Below are positions 23,717-60,600 of a stretch of DNA of 64,000 nt, piece by piece. Origin of the DNA: Escherichia phage FL23; sequence record PP400787. One strand, written 5' to 3'. The position numbers and the translations under genes are program-made. The notes beneath the pieces are model-generated. The model was not told where the DNA came from. It worked only from the letters and a program-made list of their open reading frames with translations, and did not search any database. Position 1 is the first letter of the stretch. Each line of letters opens with the position of its first letter.

Positions 23717-26857
<3,141 letters not shown>

Positions 26858-54909: not shown

Positions 54910-55394
54910 TTTTAAAAACTCGCTGGTATGATTTAGATGATGGGGACGATGGCATTTCAGTTGATAGAGTTGACTGGAATGGTTGTTCCGAAGATATGAA
55001 AAATTTGTTGATTAGGGAGTTTAGAATGGGATATCAAGCAGCTAAGCCATTTACTGTAACAGATGATAAGTTCGTATGTATTCAAAACGGTCGCGCTAAG
55101 TTAACGAATGCTGATTGGTTCACAGATAAGAAGGTTCTTCTGTGGTATATCATTAGTCTTCCTATATCATCGTTCGTATTTTACTTTTTTATAAAAAATC
55201 CAATGGACAGAATAGGAGATTGGGTTCTTTTAACTATACTTGTTAATATTTTTACAGCAGCAGTATTATCAGGAATATGGCGTATGTTCATTGAAATGCC
55301 ATGGCGTTTACGCAGACAACAAAAGATTTTTGATGAAAAGAAATATACTCAAAATTTAAATAACTTTATCACTGAATGCAGGAAATTAAAATGA
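54906..55394 (+). CDS. Small membrane protein, paralog family member 3
   Basis: 162-aa ORF; TM segments; C-terminus ...NFITECRKLK; ATGA coupling on both sides. Confidence 0.5.
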   Translation: MILKTRWYDLDDGDDGISVDRVDWNGCSEDMKNLLIREFRMGYQAAKPFTVTDDKFVCIQNGRAKLTNADWFTDKKVLLWYIISLPISSFVFYFFIKNPMDRIGDWVLLTILVNIFTAAVLSGIWRMFIEMPWRLRRQQKIFDEKKYTQNLNNFITECRKLK

Positions 55395-55831
55395 AAACAC
55401 TATCAGCTGGTATTATCTTTATGACAGAAGATAAAGATTTATTTATGGGTCGGGTTACTGGTTCTCGTAAGCCTGGAATGATGGCACATCGCTGGGATAT
55501 TCCAAAGGGCCGCGTAGAAAGTTCTGATTTGAATGCACTGGAAGCTGCAAAAAGAGAATGCTTAGAAGAGACCGGTTTTAGCAATTATAATCCAGACCTT
55601 CTAGAAGACCTAGGTGTATTTAAATATTCTAGTAATAAAGACTTACAGTTATTTTATTATACGATTCCAGTAGAGCATGAGATGTTTAGAAATTGCCATT
55701 GCGAGTCTTATTTTGAAAATAAAGATGGCGTTATGATTCCAGAGATGGATGCTTTTGCTCTTATTCCTCGTACTCAGTGGCAATATGTGATGGGTCCTTC
55801 ACTTTACCGAATAATGAACAACCTCTTTTAA
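55391..55831 (+). CDS. nudE: Nudix hydrolase (NudE-like)
   Basis: Nudix box GRVESSDLNALEAAKRECLEETGF; start set at ATG 55391 (ATGA overlap with upstream stop, SD aggaaa) rather than the track's 55376. Confidence 0.75.
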   Translation: MKTLSAGIIFMTEDKDLFMGRVTGSRKPGMMAHRWDIPKGRVESSDLNALEAAKRECLEETGFSNYNPDLLEDLGVFKYSSNKDLQLFYYTIPVEHEMFRNCHCESYFENKDGVMIPEMDAFALIPRTQWQYVMGPSLYRIMNNLF

Positions 55832-56634
<803 letters not shown>

Positions 56635-56635
56635 T

Positions 56636-56689
56636 GTTTACTTCCTCCAAGGGTTTTGATACTATACATTCATCAACTACTTGGAGGAA
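56636..56689 (+). promoter_or_regulatory. Early promoter with SD-sequestering stem-loop (PeSL-like)
   Basis: GTTTACT, 17-nt spacer, TACTAT (56660-56665); 10-bp inverted repeat 56642-56651 / 56680-56689 whose 3' arm contains SD GGAGG. Confidence 0.6.
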
Positions 56690-56692
56690 ATT

Positions 56693-56795
56693 ATGACCCG
56701 TCCGAAGCGTCCATTGCGATAAGTCAAGCACGCTTAGATAAAAAATTGCTCAACGCCCGACTTGGTACAAATACTTTGGTAAATCAATTTACTAA
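56693..56795 (+). pseudogene. denV: denV (endonuclease V / pyrimidine-dimer glycosylase) relic: start codon context plus about 30 C-terminal codons, frameshifted
   Basis: ATG-ACC-CGT (MTR) then out of frame; frame A reads [12 protein letters not shown], frame B (after A6 run 56740-56745) reads [16 protein letters not shown], matching my recollection of T4 DenV C-terminus (...[32 protein letters not shown]); about 105 internal codons are absent. Confidence 0.6.
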
Positions 56796-56801
56796 GGAAA
56801 A

Positions 56802-56987
56802 ATGAAAATGTATCAAGAATTTATCGTTGAAGCAGATGCCAAAGGTCCTAAATTTAAAGTTAAAGCTTTCATTGGTGATGCGGAAGACTTTGGCTCATTA
56901 AAACGTAATGGGTATTCTTTCTTAGGTGGCGATGGTAAAGAAATCAAAACACCTATGCAAAACGTAGTGAAATTGCTTATGTTGTAG
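56802..56987 (+). CDS. Internal-protein-like capsid-targeted protein (CTS MKMYQEFIVE...), possibly truncated by frameshift
   Basis: 61-aa ORF with SD aagga; a second open frame 56939-57064 continues with protein-like sequence. Confidence 0.5.
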   Translation: MKMYQEFIVEADAKGPKFKVKAFIGDAEDFGSLKRNGYSFLGGDGKEIKTPMQNVVKLLML

Positions 56988-57067
56988 CAAGTCCTAAAGT
57001 AGATGTTGACGATATTGGATATGATTTTAACAACTTCGGAATTATTTCTGGCGGTAAAGCTTAAACG

Positions 57068-57097
57068 GTTTACGCTTAAGTATTAATATGGTATAAT
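57068..57097 (+). promoter_or_regulatory. Early promoter
   Basis: GTTTACG, 17-nt spacer, TATAAT (57092-57097). Confidence 0.6.
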
Positions 57098-57125
57098 TAC
57101 TCTATCAAAACAAACAAGGAAACAT

Positions 57126-57428
57126 ATGAAAACGTATAAAGAATTTATTACTGAAGCGCGAGTGAGTGCAGGTAAATTATATGCCGCTATAAATAAAAAG
57201 GCCCATTCATTTCATGATTTGTCCGATAAAGACCGTAAGAAACTTGTAAGCCTTTATATTGACAAAGAGCGTATTCTCGCTCTTCCTGGCGCTAATGAAG
57301 GTAAACAGGCAAAGCCTTTGAATGCTGTTGAAAAGAAAATTGATAACTTTGCTTCTAAATTCGGTATGTCTATGGATGACCTTCAGCAAGCGGCTATCGA
57401 AGCAGCTAAAGTAATTAAAGGTAAATAA
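57126..57428 (+). CDS. Internal-protein-like capsid-targeted protein (CTS MKTYKEFITE...; IPII-like size)
   Basis: 100-aa ORF with SD aagga and CTS-like N-terminus. Confidence 0.6.
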   Translation: MKTYKEFITEARVSAGKLYAAINKKAHSFHDLSDKDRKKLVSLYIDKERILALPGANEGKQAKPLNAVEKKIDNFASKFGMSMDDLQQAAIEAAKVIKGK

Positions 57429-57430
57429 CA

Positions 57431-57460
57431 GTTTACTTTCTCCTAGAATTGTGATAGTAT
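57431..57460 (+). promoter_or_regulatory. Early promoter
   Basis: GTTTACT immediately after the stop of the previous gene, 17-nt spacer, TAGTAT (57455-57460). Confidence 0.5.
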
Positions 57461-57541
57461 ATTCATAATTACTTGGAGGGGTAAATACAGAAATGGACAA
57501 TTCATGCGCCACGGAATGGCCCAACATAAAAGAGAAACTAA

Positions 57542-58093
57542 ATGAGAACATTTTTAACTGGACCTTATCTATCCCTGATGAATGCTTTTACACACCATTC
57601 TGATGCTAGAGTAGAAGAAATTTGTAAGAACGGTTATGTCCCACCATTTGAAGATGTACTCAAGCAGTACTGTACACTTCGTTTAGACGGCGGCAGACAA
57701 TCAGGTAAATCAATTGCTGTGACTAACTTCGCTGCTAATTGGTTGTATGATGGCGGAACTGTTATTGTTCTTTCTAATACTTCAGCTTATGCTAAAATTT
57801 CTGCTAAAATTTCTGCTGGCAACATTAAAAAAGAATTTTCTCGTTATTCTAGCGATGATATTCGATTCCGTTTATTTACTGATTCTGTTCGTAGTTTTAT
57901 TGGCAATGAAGGTTCTAAATTCCGTGGATTAACGCTTTCTCGTATTCTGTACATAATTGACGAGCCTATTAAAGCTCCTGATATGGATAAGATTTACAAT
58001 GTCCATATTAAAACAGTCCAACACTGTTGCAAAAGCAAATATTGCATCGGCGGTAATGCTCGTCCTCAATTTTTTGTGATTGGAATGCAATGA
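57542..58093 (+). CDS. Small P-loop NTPase-like protein (183 aa)
   Basis: Walker A-like GGRQSGKS and Walker B-like ILYIIDE. Confidence 0.5.
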   Translation: MRTFLTGPYLSLMNAFTHHSDARVEEICKNGYVPPFEDVLKQYCTLRLDGGRQSGKSIAVTNFAANWLYDGGTVIVLSNTSAYAKISAKISAGNIKKEFSRYSSDDIRFRLFTDSVRSFIGNEGSKFRGLTLSRILYIIDEPIKAPDMDKIYNVHIKTVQHCCKSKYCIGGNARPQFFVIGMQ

Positions 58094-58398
58094 TGACCAC
58101 TATTGAAGTTTTTGAATATTGTTATAACAGCCCAGTATGCAATAAAAGGGCTCTTGTAGAAAATTACGAGATTTACCATTTTAAACCTAAACGATATCGT
58201 TTGACTAAAGGTCCGTTCGCAGGGCAGCAGGTTCTTTGTACTGCTCCTAATGCACGGTTAATGACTAGTATTCCGCATTTCAAAATGGAATTTATTGATG
58301 GGCCATTTAAGGGATTAATCACTCAAAGTTTAATGGCGTTTAATTCCGACCCATTTTTGATTAAAGAAAAAACTTGGATAAATTTATTTTCTAATTGA
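58090..58398 (+). CDS. Hypothetical protein (102 aa)
   Basis: ORF with ATGA coupling to upstream gene. Confidence 0.5.
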
Positions 58399-58405
58399 GG
58401 TTATT

Positions 58406-58768
58406 ATGAAAGCATATCAAATTCTTGAAGGTGCACATAAAGGCACTATTTATTTTGAAGACGGTACTCAAGCCCGGATTATTGTCTCTAAGACTTTTAA
58501 AGAAGACGCTATTGTAGACCCGGAAATTTTCTACGGTTTGCATGCCCGTGAAATTGAAATTGAACATCAACCTAAAGTTAAAATTGAAGGTGGTCAACAT
58601 CTGAACGTTAACGTTCTGCGTCGTGAAACTCTGGAAGATGCAGTTAAGCATCCGGAAAAATATCCGCAGCTGACCATCCGTGTATCCGGTTATGCAGTTC
58701 GCTTTAACTCTCTGACTCCGGAACAGCAGCGCGACGTTATCGCTCGTACCTTTACCGAGAGTCTATAA
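58406..58768 (+). CDS. Autonomous glycyl-radical cofactor-like protein (GrcA/YfiD-like; T4 Y06I-like)
   Basis: C-terminal 60 residues (...[60 protein letters not shown]) carry the glycyl-radical motif RVSGY; SD gagg. Confidence 0.75.
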
Positions 58769-58989
58769 TGGCTAAATTGATTATAGAAGGGTCTGAAGAT
58801 GTTTTAAAATGTTTTGCCGCCTGGTTTAGTTGCTCAGGCGAGCAATCATTCACTGAAGCATTTAGAATGGGTGATATTACTGGAAACTATCCGACAACTG
58901 ATATCACTGTACGTGGATATGGTATTAATGAACCTATTCGTTTAGTTGAATACGATTTATGTACTGGTGAGGAAGTCAAATATGATTGA
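58768..58989 (+). CDS. Hypothetical protein (73 aa)
   Basis: ORF coupled (TAATG) to upstream gene. Confidence 0.45.
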   Translation: MAKLIIEGSEDVLKCFAAWFSCSGEQSFTEAFRMGDITGNYPTTDITVRGYGINEPIRLVEYDLCTGEEVKYD

Positions 58990-59248
58990 AGATATTAAGG
59001 GTTATAAACCACATACTGAAGAGAAAATAGGTAAAGTAAATGCTATTAAAGACGCTGAAGTTCGTTTAGGACTTATCTTTGACGCTTTATACGATGAATT
59101 TTGGGAAGCATTTGATAGCTGTGAAGATGATGAACTCGCGAAGAATTACGCCGAAAGCCTCGATCAGTTAACTATTGCTAAAACGAAACTCAAAGAAGCT
59201 AGTATGTGGGCTTGTCGTGCTGTGTTCCAACCAGAGGAAAAATATTAA
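58982..59248 (+). CDS. Hypothetical protein (88 aa)
   Basis: Verified ATG 58982 overlapping upstream stop. Confidence 0.45.
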
Positions 59249-59526
59249 TGGCTCAATTAAGCGCAGGGTTTGGTTATGAGTATTATACTGTCCCTCGTCG
59301 TGTATCTATTGCTCCTAAGAAAATTCAAAGTCTTGATGATTTCCAGGAAGTAGTCCGTAAAGCTTTCCAGGACTATGCACGTTATCTTAAAGAAGATTCA
59401 CAGGACTGCCTCGAAGAAGATGAAATTGCTTACTATGAGCAACGTCTTGAACAGCTTAAAAACTTACATGAGGTTCGTGCAGAAGTTACAAAGTCTATGA
59501 ATAAATTGATTAGATTTAAAGAATAA
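59248..59526 (+). CDS. Hypothetical protein (92 aa)
   Basis: Verified ATG 59248 (TAATG overlap). Confidence 0.45.
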
Positions 59527-59528
59527 CT

Positions 59529-59581
59529 GTTTACTTTTCCTCTTGACTGTGGTATAATTTTTCTATCAGTTAAGAGGAGAA
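59529..59581 (+). promoter_or_regulatory. Early promoter with SD-sequestering stem-loop (PeSL-like) for regB
   Basis: GTTTACT, 17-nt spacer, TATAAT (59553-59558); 10-bp stem ttttcctctt (59535-59544) with aagaggagaa (59572-59581, contains SD). Confidence 0.65.
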
Positions 59582-59585
59582 TAAC

Positions 59586-60047
59586 ATGACTATCAATACA
59601 GAAGTTTTTATCCGTAGAAATAAGCTTCGTCGTCACTTTGAGTCGGAGTTTCGTCAAATTAACAATGAGATTCGTGAGGCATCAAAAGCAGCAGGGGTCT
59701 CATCGTTTCATCTAAAATATTCTCAGCATCTTCTTGATCGTGCAATTCAACGGGAGATTGATGAGACATATGTTTTTGAATTATTCCACAAAATAAAAGA
59801 CCATGTTTTAGAAGTTAATGAATTCCTGAGTATGCCTCCGCGTCCTGACATTGATGAGGATTTTATTGATGGGGTTGAATACCGTCCTGGACGTTTAGAA
59901 ATCACAGATGGAAATCTTTGGCTTGGATTTACAGTTTGTAAACCTAATGCAAAGTTCAAAGACCCGTCACTTCAATGTAGGATGGCAATTATTAACAGTC
60001 GTCGTTTACCAGGAAAGGCTTCTAAAGCAGTAATTAAAACTCAATGA
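59586..60047 (+). CDS. regB: RegB site-specific endoribonuclease
   Basis: 153-aa ORF, same length as T4 RegB; position upstream of vs/tk. Confidence 0.75.
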   Translation: MTINTEVFIRRNKLRRHFESEFRQINNEIREASKAAGVSSFHLKYSQHLLDRAIQREIDETYVFELFHKIKDHVLEVNEFLSMPPRPDIDEDFIDGVEYRPGRLEITDGNLWLGFTVCKPNAKFKDPSLQCRMAIINSRRLPGKASKAVIKTQ

Positions 60048-60054
60048 GGTAAGC

Positions 60055-60600
60055 ATGAGAAAAGCACTACTCGCTGGTCTATTGGCCATTTCAATGATGG
60101 CACATAGCTCCGAGCATACTTTCAGTAATGTCCAACTCGATAACATGCGTTACGCGTATCAATTCGGGGAACAATTTTCTAAGGATGGAAAATATAAAAC
60201 ACACAAAAACATCCATAAGAGCGGATTGGGTCATATAATGGCTGCTATTTTGTGGCAAGAAAGCTCTGCCGGAGTTAATTTAAAATCTAAACCAAAGCAT
60301 CATGCCTATGGAATGTTCCAAAATTATTTGCCTACTATGCGAGCAAGAGTTAAGGAACTTGGTTATAATATGACCGATGCTGAAATAAAAAGAATGTTGA
60401 ATAAACGGTCCAATTCAGCTTCCTGGGCGTACATTGAACTTTCTTATTGGTTAAATATACATAAGGGCGATATAAGAAAGGCGATATCCTCTTATAATTC
60501 GGGATGGAATGTTAAAGCAGGTTCTAAATATGCTTCTGAAGTCCTAGAAAAGGCTAATTACCTTAAAAATAATAAACTTTTGGAAATAGTAAATGACTAA
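60055..60600 (+). CDS. Secreted protein with lytic-transglycosylase-like motif (vs.1 position)
   Basis: 181-aa ORF with N-terminal signal peptide (MRKALLAGLLAISMMAHS) and WQESS motif. Confidence 0.5.
   Translation: MRKALLAGLLAISMMAHSSEHTFSNVQLDNMRYAYQFGEQFSKDGKYKTHKNIHKSGLGHIMAAILWQESSAGVNLKSKPKHHAYGMFQNYLPTMRARVKELGYNMTDAEIKRMLNKRSNSASWAYIELSYWLNIHKGDIRKAISSYNSGWNVKAGSKYASEVLEKANYLKNNKLLEIVND

Follow-up and report, generated by a model that had tools for sequence, protein, structure and literature searches.

What kind of protein does Escherichia phage FL23 encode in a small ATPase-like gene of its early region, and what might the phage use it for? We address this question in a 64,000-nucleotide stretch of the phage genome (sequence record PP400787), referred to here as the window. 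The original prediction, made from the sequence alone, described a 183 amino acid ORF with a Walker A-like motif (GGRQSGKS) and a Walker B-like motif (ILYIIDE). It proposed a P-loop NTPase-like protein of unknown function, far too small for a helicase or a terminase, and could not place it in a T4 gene family. The coordinates of the ORF, which begins with ATG, and both motifs are exactly as claimed (Table 1). The size and the motifs stand, but the protein does belong to a named T4 family, that of vs.8. The profile of PHROG 1488 matches it with an E-value of 1.4e-76 (residues 3-183 align to profile positions 2-177 of 177), and the gene is syntenic with vs.8 of T4 and PP01. On these two grounds we identify the ORF as the ortholog of the T4 early gene vs.8; the gene is real, but already known. 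In its identity and architecture taken together we have very high confidence.

Table 1. Positions of vs.8, its motifs and neighboring features in the window, with gene 17 for comparison
Feature	Position	Strand	Description
Candidate T4-type early promoter	57431..57460	+	GTTTAC ... TGaTAGTAT, upstream of vs.8; read from the sequence, assignment inferred
Upstream ORF (MDNSCATEWP...)	57493..57603	+	Behind GGAGG (57475-57479); in a frame other than that of vs.8, whose start it overlaps
vs.8 coding sequence	57542..58093	+	183 amino acids; predicted stand-alone terminase-like ASCE P-loop ATPase domain
Walker A / P-loop	57689..57712	+	GGRQSGKS, residues 50-57; invariant in the 17-sequence alignment; paired by hhalign with gp17 RQLGKT
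12-bp perfect tandem duplication	57790..57817	+	TGCTAAAATTTC x2.3 (TRF)
R128-G129, candidate arginine finger	57923..57928	+	Precedes the catalytic Glu by 13 residues; pairs with "VRG" of gp17, ahead of Walker B
Walker B and catalytic glutamate	57944..57964	+	ILYIIDE, residues 135-141; aligned to gp17 MIYIDE; predicted beta-strand 135-141
C-terminal strand	58070..58090	+	FFVIGMQ, residues 177-183; F177, G181 and Q183 invariant; strand 175-181 in the model
ATGA overlap	58090..58093	+	vs.8 stop TGA overlaps vs.7 start ATG
vs.7	58090..58398	+	102 amino acids; two N-terminal helices, then an SH3/KOW-like beta-barrel (model)
gp17, terminase large subunit	23720..25552	-	Comparator, not part of the module; Pfam Terminase_6N 5.8e-57, Terminase_6C 9.3e-33

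T4 Vs.8 (gene vs.8, T4p119, NP_049732 / UniProt P13318) has the same motifs as the protein in the window, and its gene is likewise flanked by the internal-protein/denV genes on one side and on the other by vs.7, which it overlaps in the same way. The PhiC120 protein is 95.1% identical to that of the window. The T4 database entry is 219 amino acids long, against 183 in the window, owing to an over-extended T4 start. M1 is invariant while the frame upstream of it varies between phages, which marks this and other longer annotations (some metagenomic calls have 194-196 amino acids) as over-extensions. Wrong database labels for vs.8 are widespread and include endonuclease, RegB, endoribonuclease and terminase large subunit. 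We find Vs.8 in 1009 phage records, 1007 of them near full length, as compared with 1137 records for RegB. Its near-universal presence in the enterobacterial T-even phages is reported here for the first time.

Could the two motifs have arisen by chance in a protein of another fold, or the ORF be no gene at all? Among the 143 ORFs of 60 or more amino acids in the six frames of the window, only vs.8 and thymidine kinase have the pattern [GA]x4GK[ST], and both motifs of Vs.8 appear together with a frequency of 1.8e-4 when the protein's own composition is shuffled (n = 200,000). Conservation is stronger evidence than this frequency. The residues D49-G-G-R-Q-S-G-K56 and I138-I-D-E-P142 are invariant among 17 homologs, down to approximately 40% identity, and most of 31 family representatives keep both motifs down to approximately 20%. 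Together with the predicted RecA-like fold described below, the detection of the protein during T4 infection (PMC9697503) and more than 1000 syntenic orthologs, this family-wide invariance refutes a chance origin. Sub-threshold Pfam scores, and nothing else, speak for such an origin, and we regard its probability as practically nil.

The AF2 model of Vs.8 (pLDDT 76, pTM 0.78) predicts a free-standing, single five-stranded RecA-like (ASCE) P-loop domain. In this model, Walker A follows strand 45-48 and precedes helix 56-69, and LYIIDE (residues 136-141) lies on the core strand 135-141. From the invariance of the catalytic residues, we infer that Vs.8 binds and probably hydrolyzes ATP. The P-loop NTPase assignment is borne out by the conserved motifs and the predicted fold, and so is the statement on size, the single domain lacking a nuclease or a second RecA domain. 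All of 50 family representatives are small, most with approximately 160-185 amino acids and the longest with 259. Some distant members are catalytically degenerate (GH[ST] replaces GK[ST], and DE is lost), which raises the question whether catalysis is dispensable. These members lie on short contigs or in unrelated phages with different contexts, and nothing follows from them for the T-even clade.

Which characterized proteins does this domain resemble? Direct database searches give little. With the single protein or the 17-sequence profile as query, a PDB sequence search returns insignificant hits only (SRP receptor, 0.097; conjugative coupling protein, 0.07-0.16), and nothing in Pfam, NCBIfam or PADLOC scores above threshold (best in PADLOC: HerA, E-value 0.035). 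For Pfam Terminase_6N the score is 12.1 bits, where the curated threshold is 22, and the best E-value among 31 members, 1.4e-4, is sub-threshold too. Profile-profile comparison is more informative. When the Vs.8 profile is aligned by hhalign to gp17 of the window, the match has a probability of 90.3% (E-value 1.5e-6) and pairs Walker A, RG and Walker B of the two proteins; the extended alignment gives 92.3% (E-value 5.4e-7). The match covers only residues ~141-262 of gp17, i.e., the ATPase core, at approximately 13-16% identity. The TerL profile phrog_2 is matched by 18 of the 31 family members (best E-value 3.9e-8). Walker motifs and terminase sequence homology have been reported for vs.8 before, the latter found independently by PSI-BLAST (PMC13601566).

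The hhalign controls also bear on the idea that Vs.8 is a fragment or first domain of an SF2 or SF1B helicase, or that Vs.8 and Vs.7, the product of the next gene, together make up a split Dda-like helicase, with Vs.7 supplying the SH3 domain. Weak Pfam matches to AAA_30 (14 of 31 members) and AAA_19 (5 of 31) are in line with it. However, UvsW (SF2) reaches only 1.2% and the Dda-like helicase (SF1B) 12%, both in the P-loop only, and thymidine kinase 5.9%; the match to gp17 is far stronger. Vs.7 against the Dda-like helicase scores 0.2%, and on these controls we reject the split SF1B arrangement with Vs.8 as domain 1A. Vs.8 differs from the SF2 RecA1 domain and from the SF1B helicases Dda, RecD and Pif1 as a single domain, with no helicase motifs past Walker A/B and no significant profile similarity beyond the P-loop. 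A helicase origin is thus very improbable.

The closest characterized relative of Vs.8 is the gp17 ATPase core, of which Vs.8 is, by these profile matches, a diverged paralog. Like gp17 (Terminase_6N; PDB 2o0h), Vs.8 has a Walker A of the form RQxGK[ST] with arginine at position 3 (gp17: SRQLGKT), an Arg-Gly pair that precedes the catalytic Glu by approximately 11-13 residues, and an hhhhDE Walker B. R128-G129 is invariant in the 17-sequence alignment, and G129 nearly so in the alignment of 31 representatives. By analogy with terminases, R128 is a candidate arginine finger. The Vs.8 chain ends right behind FFVIGMQ, where terminases have their sensor or C-motif strand. FFVIGMQ may correspond to the gp17 C-motif; the extended hhalign alignment has zero confidence in that region. 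Differences from gp17 are equally clear. Vs.8, with approximately 180 amino acids, lacks the N-terminal ~140 residues of gp17, its lid subdomain and its RNase-H-like nuclease domain (Terminase_6C has no match, and the protein stops at 183, after the fifth core strand). At the adenine-binding YQ position of gp17, the Vs.8 alignment shows no conservation. Given the shared motifs and the missing domains, Vs.8 would share the nucleotide pocket of terminases without being one. These alignments and the model supply the profile and structure check that the original prediction had proposed, and they exclude chance motifs in an unrelated fold.

As for function, the caution of the original prediction agrees with the literature, in which the evidence on Vs.8 comes from immunity screens. 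In a screen of T4 and PhiC120 proteins, co-expression of Vs.8 with the terminase sensor EcAvs2 was toxic, and a published AF3 model places Vs.8 in the terminase-binding pocket of Avs2 (PMC13601566). One immune sensor thus recognizes both gp17 and Vs.8. The authors of that study themselves suggested an anti-defense role for Vs.8 (PMC13601566). In a published screen of vs.3-vs.8, Vs.8 alone did not emerge as an anti-Thoeris-IV factor. Vs.8 may be likened to Ksap1 and Ksap2, which activate Avs2 on co-expression without being terminases (PMC13601566 and ref. 4 therein); they, too, are small, restricted to particular phage taxa and similar to the ATPase sheet of terminases. Both come from phage groups other than that of Vs.8 (Dhillonvirus, Stephanstirmvirinae), and the likeness is drawn by description.

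When is Vs.8 made? T4 vs.8 and vs.7 fall into the early RNA and early protein classes (PMC9697503 supplements), and the "promoter of vs.8" of T4 is active in E. coli (PMC13243611). T4 Vs.8 is made several minutes ahead of the late terminase. In the window, a scan for consensus promoters directly upstream of vs.8 gives no site above threshold, so the assignment of the candidate promoter in Table 1 rests on reading of the sequence and on the literature. This candidate scores 8/12 with an extended -10 TG, below the threshold of the scanner, and its region shares 93% identity with what precedes ipIII in T4. The short ORF that overlaps the start of vs.8 holds an invariant hairpin-like block (GCCA-NGGAA-TGGC). 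As an RNA element, this conserved block has neither an Rfam match nor covariation support. One terminator-like site falls within the 3' end of vs.8 (58049-58064), but such sites are no more frequent than chance predicts (2 against 2.5 expected).

The homology to gp17 raises the possibility that Vs.8 regulates packaging, binding the partners of gp17 (the small terminase gp16, gp20 of the portal, or, in mixed rings, gp17 itself) and restraining or tuning the terminase ATPase or nuclease until late in infection. The homology is specific to the ATPase core and includes the Arg that acts in trans to complete the active sites between subunits, and the placement of Vs.8 in the Avs2 terminase pocket in the published model implies a gp17-like face. 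Several observations argue against such a role. Vs.8 is made early, but packaging and gp17 belong to the late phase, and identity to gp17 is only ~13-16%. The gp17 parts outside the core (the N-terminal 140 residues, lid and nuclease) are absent from Vs.8, and the contacts of gp17 with its partners are generally placed outside the ATPase core. The gene vs.8 lies in a host-interaction island, approximately 32 kb from gene 17 and on the opposite strand, not beside the small terminase or portal genes. Finally, gp17 is present in all T4-like phages, but Aeromonas is absent among the ten most frequent organism names of Vs.8 records, while 42 Aeromonas phage records have RegB. We consider a packaging role quite improbable.

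The gene neighborhood gives a different kind of clue. The early block has the conserved order e, internal proteins, vs.8, vs.7, vs.6, vs.5, vs.4 (Acb2), vs.3 (TadIV-1), regB, and we see vs.8 at this position in the window, T4, PP01, CHI14, Roth77 and 35 IMG/VR loci; the presence of vs.6 and vs.3 varies among related loci. The internal-protein genes are immediately upstream of vs.8, the product of vs.4 is Acb2 (Pfam match in the window), and vs.3 has been described as TadIV-1. Both Acb2 and TadIV-1 are small accessory proteins aimed at host immunity and share the transcription block and timing of Vs.8. They are nucleotide sponges, whereas Vs.8 is of the ATPase type and has no sequence or fold similarity to them, and the link is positional only. 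In 31 of 34 loci, and also in Roth77 and CHI14, vs.7 directly follows vs.8 with an ATGA/TAATG overlap, an arrangement that indicates translational coupling in enterobacterial T-even phages and is described here for the first time. More distant members of the Vs.8 family occur at other genome positions and without Vs.7, one of them among replication/early genes, between gene 39 and rIIA.

How fast do these proteins evolve? Across 27 distant loci, the median identity to the window is 43% for Vs.8 and 41% for Vs.7, as compared with 57-73% for NudE, RegB, Acb2, Vs.1 and e. By this measure, not reported before, Vs.8 and Vs.7 evolve faster than any other protein of the island, yet the catalytic residues are fixed. 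The invariance of the motifs amid divergence elsewhere suggests that catalysis by Vs.8 has been maintained. The FL23 allele itself has two peculiarities. First, the 12-bp duplication adds four residues (AKIS) to helix alpha-2, giving 183 amino acids rather than 179-181. T4 Vs.8 lacks this duplication, as do all 16 other sequences of the 17-sequence alignment; it is common only to phage FL44, and the local pLDDT at the insertion drops to 54. A putative Vs.8-Vs.7 fusion in FL44-type phages involves a T-run (58070-58075 in the window). Second, vs.8 of the window is of the Mosigvirus type (96-97% identical) within an otherwise T4-type backbone. We considered whether vs.8 and vs.7 had been exchanged here as a cassette. 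By sliding-window identity the exchange covers vs.8 through vs.5, and the mosaic therefore implies no specific link of vs.8 with vs.7.

These data admit an ordinary enzyme, autonomous and unrelated to immunity. In such a scheme, Vs.8 would oligomerize through its Arg finger and form, with Vs.7 as its SH3-like adaptor to nucleic acid or protein, a small ATP-driven remodeler. It would serve an early process such as host or phage nucleic acid handling or takeover of host machinery, and Avs2 would recognize it as a by-product of the ancestry that it shares with the terminase. The catalytic Glu, the P-loop Lys/Arg and RG are invariant amid fast divergence, and retention is near-universal in enterobacterial T-even phages, which is more typical of a physiological function. 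The conserved and coupled SH3/KOW-like partner, the early expression of both proteins and the distant member between gene 39 and rIIA fit as well. On the other hand, Vs.8 is a single RecA-like domain with no recognizable nucleic-acid-binding element and no lid or second RecA domain that would couple hydrolysis to work, and the high substitution rate of Vs.8 and Vs.7 is more like that of genes in conflict with the host than of housekeeping enzymes. On balance we hold an immunity-independent enzyme to be possible but rather unlikely.

We favor, tentatively and at somewhat short of an even chance, a host-directed or counter-defense role for Vs.8. This reading draws on the presence of Acb2 and TadIV-1 in the block, the internal-protein genes upstream, the toxicity with EcAvs2 and the suggestion made by the authors of that study, and the fast evolution of Vs.8. 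Vs.8 would bind and probably hydrolyze ATP with no terminase-style DNA translocation or cutting; Vs.7 would be an adaptor, and Vs.8 an ATP-dependent binding or switch module aimed at a host factor. As counter-defense, a look-alike of the terminase ATPase, made ahead of the real terminase, would engage host proteins that recognize the terminase fold, and activation of Avs2 would be either collateral or a counter-adaptation of the host. Several points weigh against a host-directed role. The EcAvs2 result is an activation, not an inhibition, and on its face is harmful to the phage. Vs.8 expressed alone also did not come up in the anti-Thoeris-IV screen. Anti-defense genes are often patchy in distribution, as vs.6 and vs.3 are here, and near-universal retention would be unusual for one of them. 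To infer a role from the neighbors in an early accessory block is a weak argument, and the distant family members lie elsewhere, without Vs.7.

It is tempting to go one step further and view Vs.8 specifically as a decoy for terminase sensors. The ATP-loaded terminase ATPase face, together with SH3-like Vs.7, would intercept or desensitize receptors of the Avs1-3 or Upx type in natural hosts, and EcAvs2 would be a receptor that has made the decoy its trigger. A passive decoy would require neither the catalytic Glu nor the Arg finger, yet both are invariant. We regard the decoy as unlikely, and we are just as doubtful that Vs.8 and Vs.7 form a two-protein counter-defense module acting by molecular mimicry of a conserved viral pattern.

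In terms of annotation, the gain is the correction of the vs.8 mislabels and of the T4 reference start. A "hypothetical protein" becomes a concrete two-gene module, consisting of a predicted minimal terminase-type ATPase with its full catalytic set conserved and a coupled SH3-like partner, with one experimental handle, the detection of Vs.8 by the terminase sensor Avs2. If Vs.8 is an ordinary early enzyme, it would explain how Avs2 can fire ahead of terminase synthesis. If it is a decoy, it would be, to our knowledge, the first against bacterial pattern-recognition immunity, and would account for a terminase fragment retained as an early gene. A terminase mimic aimed at host immunity would add a new layer to the arms race around pattern recognition.

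On its full-length profile match and its gene order, the window protein belongs to the Vs.8 family. It matches PHROG 1488 (unknown function) from end to end (E 1.4e-76), and its gene, named vs.8 in the annotations of PP01 and T4, lies in the canonical T-even early block, nudE to vs.1. By tblastn, 1009 phage genome records contain Vs.8, 1007 of them at close to full length, and all are from enterobacterial phages; Vs.7 is found in 933 and RegB in 1137. Organism tallies give Vs.8 and RegB equal counts for Klebsiella, Enterobacter, Yersinia, Salmonella and Citrobacter phages; Aeromonas, with 42 RegB records, is absent from the ten organism names that recur most often for Vs.8. The window protein is an ordinary member of a known, widespread T-even gene family. 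Among genomes, Escherichia phage FL44 is closest, with 99.96% identity over 55000-60600.

Features of the vs.8 region and the terminase gene used for comparison
Feature	Position (nt)	Strand	Remarks
gp17 (terminase large subunit)	23720-25552	-	Pfam Terminase_6N/6C
nudE	55376-55831		
e (lysozyme)	55868-56356		
Three small internal-head-protein genes	56338-57428 (after e)		PHROG matches; 98, 61, 100 aa
vs.8	57542-58093	+	ATG start, 183 aa
GGRQSGKS (Walker A)	57689-57712	+	residues 50-57, read from sequence
ILYIIDE (Walker B)	57944-57964	+	residues 135-141, read from sequence
vs.7	58090-58398	+	
vs.6	58406-58768		Gly_radical/GrcA
vs.5	between vs.6 and vs.4		
vs.4	58946-59248		Pfam Acb2_Tad1, anti-CBASS sponge
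vs.3	59206-59526 (between vs.4 and regB)		TadIV-1 homolog
regB	59586-60047		
vs.1	after regB		SLT

The original prediction, a small P-loop NTPase-like protein with both Walker motifs, holds for the ORF, the motifs and, as it proposed to check, conservation across T4-like phages. The window has 143 six-frame ORFs of 60 amino acids or more; only vs.8 and the thymidine kinase contain a strict Walker A motif. Conservation is stronger evidence than such counts or shuffles: D49-GGRQSGK56, A59, F63, W67, G72, R117, R128-G129, I138-IDEP142, K150, Y152, F177, G181 and Q183 are invariant in 17 homologs (down to approximately 40% identity), and the motifs are kept in most of 31 representatives, down to approximately 20% identity. 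A chance origin of the Walker motifs is ruled out by this family conservation, and both motifs co-occur in shuffles of Vs.8's own composition at a frequency of only 1.8e-4.

The first methionine (M1 of MRTFL) is invariant while the reading frame 5' of it varies between phages, so that the 219 amino acid T4 entry and metagenomic calls of 194-196 amino acids appear over-extended, and M1 is, by this comparison, the true start. The T4 reference annotation (L003 4754-5413, NC_000866 64253-64912) begins 40 codons 5' of M1, in a frame that is not conserved between phages, and is almost certainly too long. In several GenBank records, homologs of vs.8 are named "endonuclease," "endoribonuclease," "RegB" or "terminase large subunit." For vs.3, the longest ORF (GTG start, 106 amino acids) overlaps vs.4 by 43 nt; its PHROG match covers residues 36-106 only, which probably places the true start further 3'.

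T-even phages conserve a block directly 5' of vs.8 (57493-57541; T4: L003 5294-5350, minus strand), ATGGACAATTCATG[CT]GCCA[CTA]GGAATGGCCC, which opens a short ORF (MDNSCATEWP...) that is ATGA-coupled to vs.8 in T4, fused to it in frame in some phages and overlaps it out of frame in the window. An invariant mini-hairpin, GCCA-NGGAA-TGGC, lies inside the block, which has neither covariation nor an Rfam match; it might encode a leader peptide or act as a translational or processing signal. Window 57431-57475 resembles the T4 sequence upstream of ipIII, and denV, located between ipII and vs.8 in T4, is missing at this place. At least two of the internal-head-protein ORFs (at 56802 and 57126) start with the capsid-targeting-like MK(M/T)YQEF / MKTYKEF.

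An AlphaFold2 model of Vs.8 built on 17 sequences (pLDDT 76, pTM 0.78) shows a RecA-like fold, with predicted helices 6-29 and 36-43, strand 45-48, the P-loop, helix 56-69, strand 73-78, helix 84-100, strands 111-115 and 135-141 (Walker B), helix 148-158, a variable, Cys-rich loop of low confidence (162-171) and a last strand (175-181). Helicases and terminases are not separable by fold alone, and we therefore used comparisons of a 31-sequence Vs.8 profile, with internal controls. The match to this phage's own gp17 scored 90.3% (E 1.5e-6, 112 columns), or 92.3% in a relaxed alignment (E 5.4e-7, 170 columns). A Dda-like SF1B helicase (12%, E 0.0024), thymidine kinase (5.9%, E 0.0064) and the SF2 helicase UvsW (1.2%, E 0.043) matched over the P-loop only. 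Vs.8 does not group with the helicases, and we regard a helicase fragment as very improbable. Residues 32-148 align to gp17 141-262, with GRQSGKS on SRQLGKT, FRG on VRG and LYIIDE on MIYIDE. Eighteen of the 31 family members match terminase-large-subunit PHROG 2 (best E 3.9e-8), and two more TerL PHROGs are also matched; all Pfam matches are sub-threshold (Terminase_6N, 16 of 31 members; AAA_14, 20; AAA_30, 14). An HMM search run exhaustively over 1.84 billion representative proteins returned only 50 relatives, all small (most approximately 160-185 amino acids, the longest 259) and none with a nuclease domain.

From the gp17 and TerL PHROG matches and the small, nuclease-free relatives, Vs.8 is a diverged paralog of the ATPase core of terminase that stands alone; it is not a terminase. 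Its nucleotide pocket is of terminase type, but it lacks gp17's first approximately 140 residues, lid subdomain and nuclease domain, ends right after the fifth core strand, stays below the Pfam threshold and, unlike TerL, is not expressed late.

The stop codon of vs.8 and the start codon of vs.7 overlap in the window (ATGA, 58090-58093). Across 35 IMG/VR loci with Vs.8 identities of 34-97%, iterated search found a Vs.7 homolog directly 3' of vs.8 in 31 of the 34 that were evaluable, the junction being nearly always ATGA or TAATG; the arrangement recurs in Klebsiella phage Roth77 and Serratia phage CHI14. The two genes are coupled. The Vs.7 model (pLDDT 91.7) is an SH3/KOW-like barrel with two GPF(K/A)G-like motifs, and Pfam family PF26834 is precomputed on its homologs. 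FL44 (PP400790.1; L004 3140-3150) has T7, six codons ahead of the vs.8 stop, where the window (58070-58075), pEB20 and PP01 have T6. The frame shifts after F178, so that VIGMQ, the remainder of the conserved C-terminus with its invariant G181 and Q183, is replaced and Vs.8 is fused in frame to Vs.7, annotated as one 285 amino acid CDS. This is probably a homopolymer sequencing error; a +1 slip at the T-run would join the coupled proteins.

The pair evolves faster than its neighbors while the catalytic residues stay fixed: over 27 distant loci, Vs.8 and Vs.7 have median identities to the window of 43% and 41%, against 57% for NudE, 60% for RegB, 64% for Acb2, 67% for Vs.1 and 73% for lysozyme. 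One distant member with intact motifs lies between gene 39 and rIIA on a T4-like contig, without Vs.7, and another, in an unrelated phage, lacks the Walker lysine; the coupling is therefore specific to this clade. A distant sub-branch (P0055, P0057, P0058 and P0062 of our 31-representative alignment; loci L043-L049) has GH[ST] for the Walker lysine and has lost the DE pair; it may be a non-catalytic offshoot of the fold. One such member adjoins a DNA methyltransferase and a resolvase on a contig that is not T4-like. Within vs.8, 57790-57817 is a perfect, in-frame 12-bp tandem duplication (TGCTAAAATTTC, 2.3 copies) that adds AKIS to helix alpha-2, the lowest-confidence helical segment of the model; among the sequences examined, only the window and FL44 have it. 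The genome is a mosaic: the vs.8-to-vs.5 segment (57530-58930) is approximately 98% identical to Mosigvirus-type phages (L012), while for nudE, e, vs.4, vs.3, regB and vs.1 it is T4-type phages (L011) that match, at 93-100% identity. A switch at approximately 58930, where vs.4 starts, indicates modular recombination within the accessory island.

[quoted passage not shown] It was predicted to occupy Avs2's terminase pocket without displacing the bridging ATP, and the authors suggested that such activators may be anti-defence proteins (PMC13601566). The PhiC120 protein is 95.1% identical to ours. According to the literature, Ksap1 and Ksap2 are grouped with Vs.8 by function ("non-terminase activator of Avs2"). 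Neighboring vs.3 is TadIV-1, an anti-Thoeris-IV sponge, and the "promoter of vs.8" has been used to drive vs.3-vs.8 in E. coli (PMC13243611). During T4 infection vs.8 and vs.7 are both early, at the RNA and protein level (PMC9697503). The core of the original prediction is already known, since the gene, its family, its ATPase- and terminase-like nature and the Avs2 link are all published. What we add is incremental: coupling to Vs.7, an SH3-like partner, the contrast in rates and the description of Vs.8 as a minimal core.

We infer that Vs.8 binds, and probably hydrolyses, ATP. By analogy with terminases, R128 may serve as arginine finger; C-terminal G181/Q183 may serve as gamma-phosphate sensor at the C-motif position, a candidate role only, since the alignment there is unreliable. 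Without lid, nuclease and second RecA domain, Vs.8 would be unable to package or cut DNA. Regulation of the phage's own packaging motor is improbable, being disfavored by timing and location. We prefer a module for ATP-dependent binding or switching that would have Vs.7 as its adaptor and be directed at a host factor, most plausibly in counter-defence. This host-directed or counter-defence role, which we hold tentatively, is suggested by the early timing, the neighborhood (Acb2, TadIV-1 and internal-protein genes), a pocket that stays fixed while its surroundings diverge fast, and the physical recognition by a terminase sensor. Against it, the sole experiment is activation of Avs2, not inhibition, and near-universal retention is unusual for anti-defence genes. 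A catalytic Glu would be superfluous for a passive decoy, and specific mimicry of terminase seems to us unlikely; an early enzyme unrelated to immunity is somewhat less so, though still not probable.
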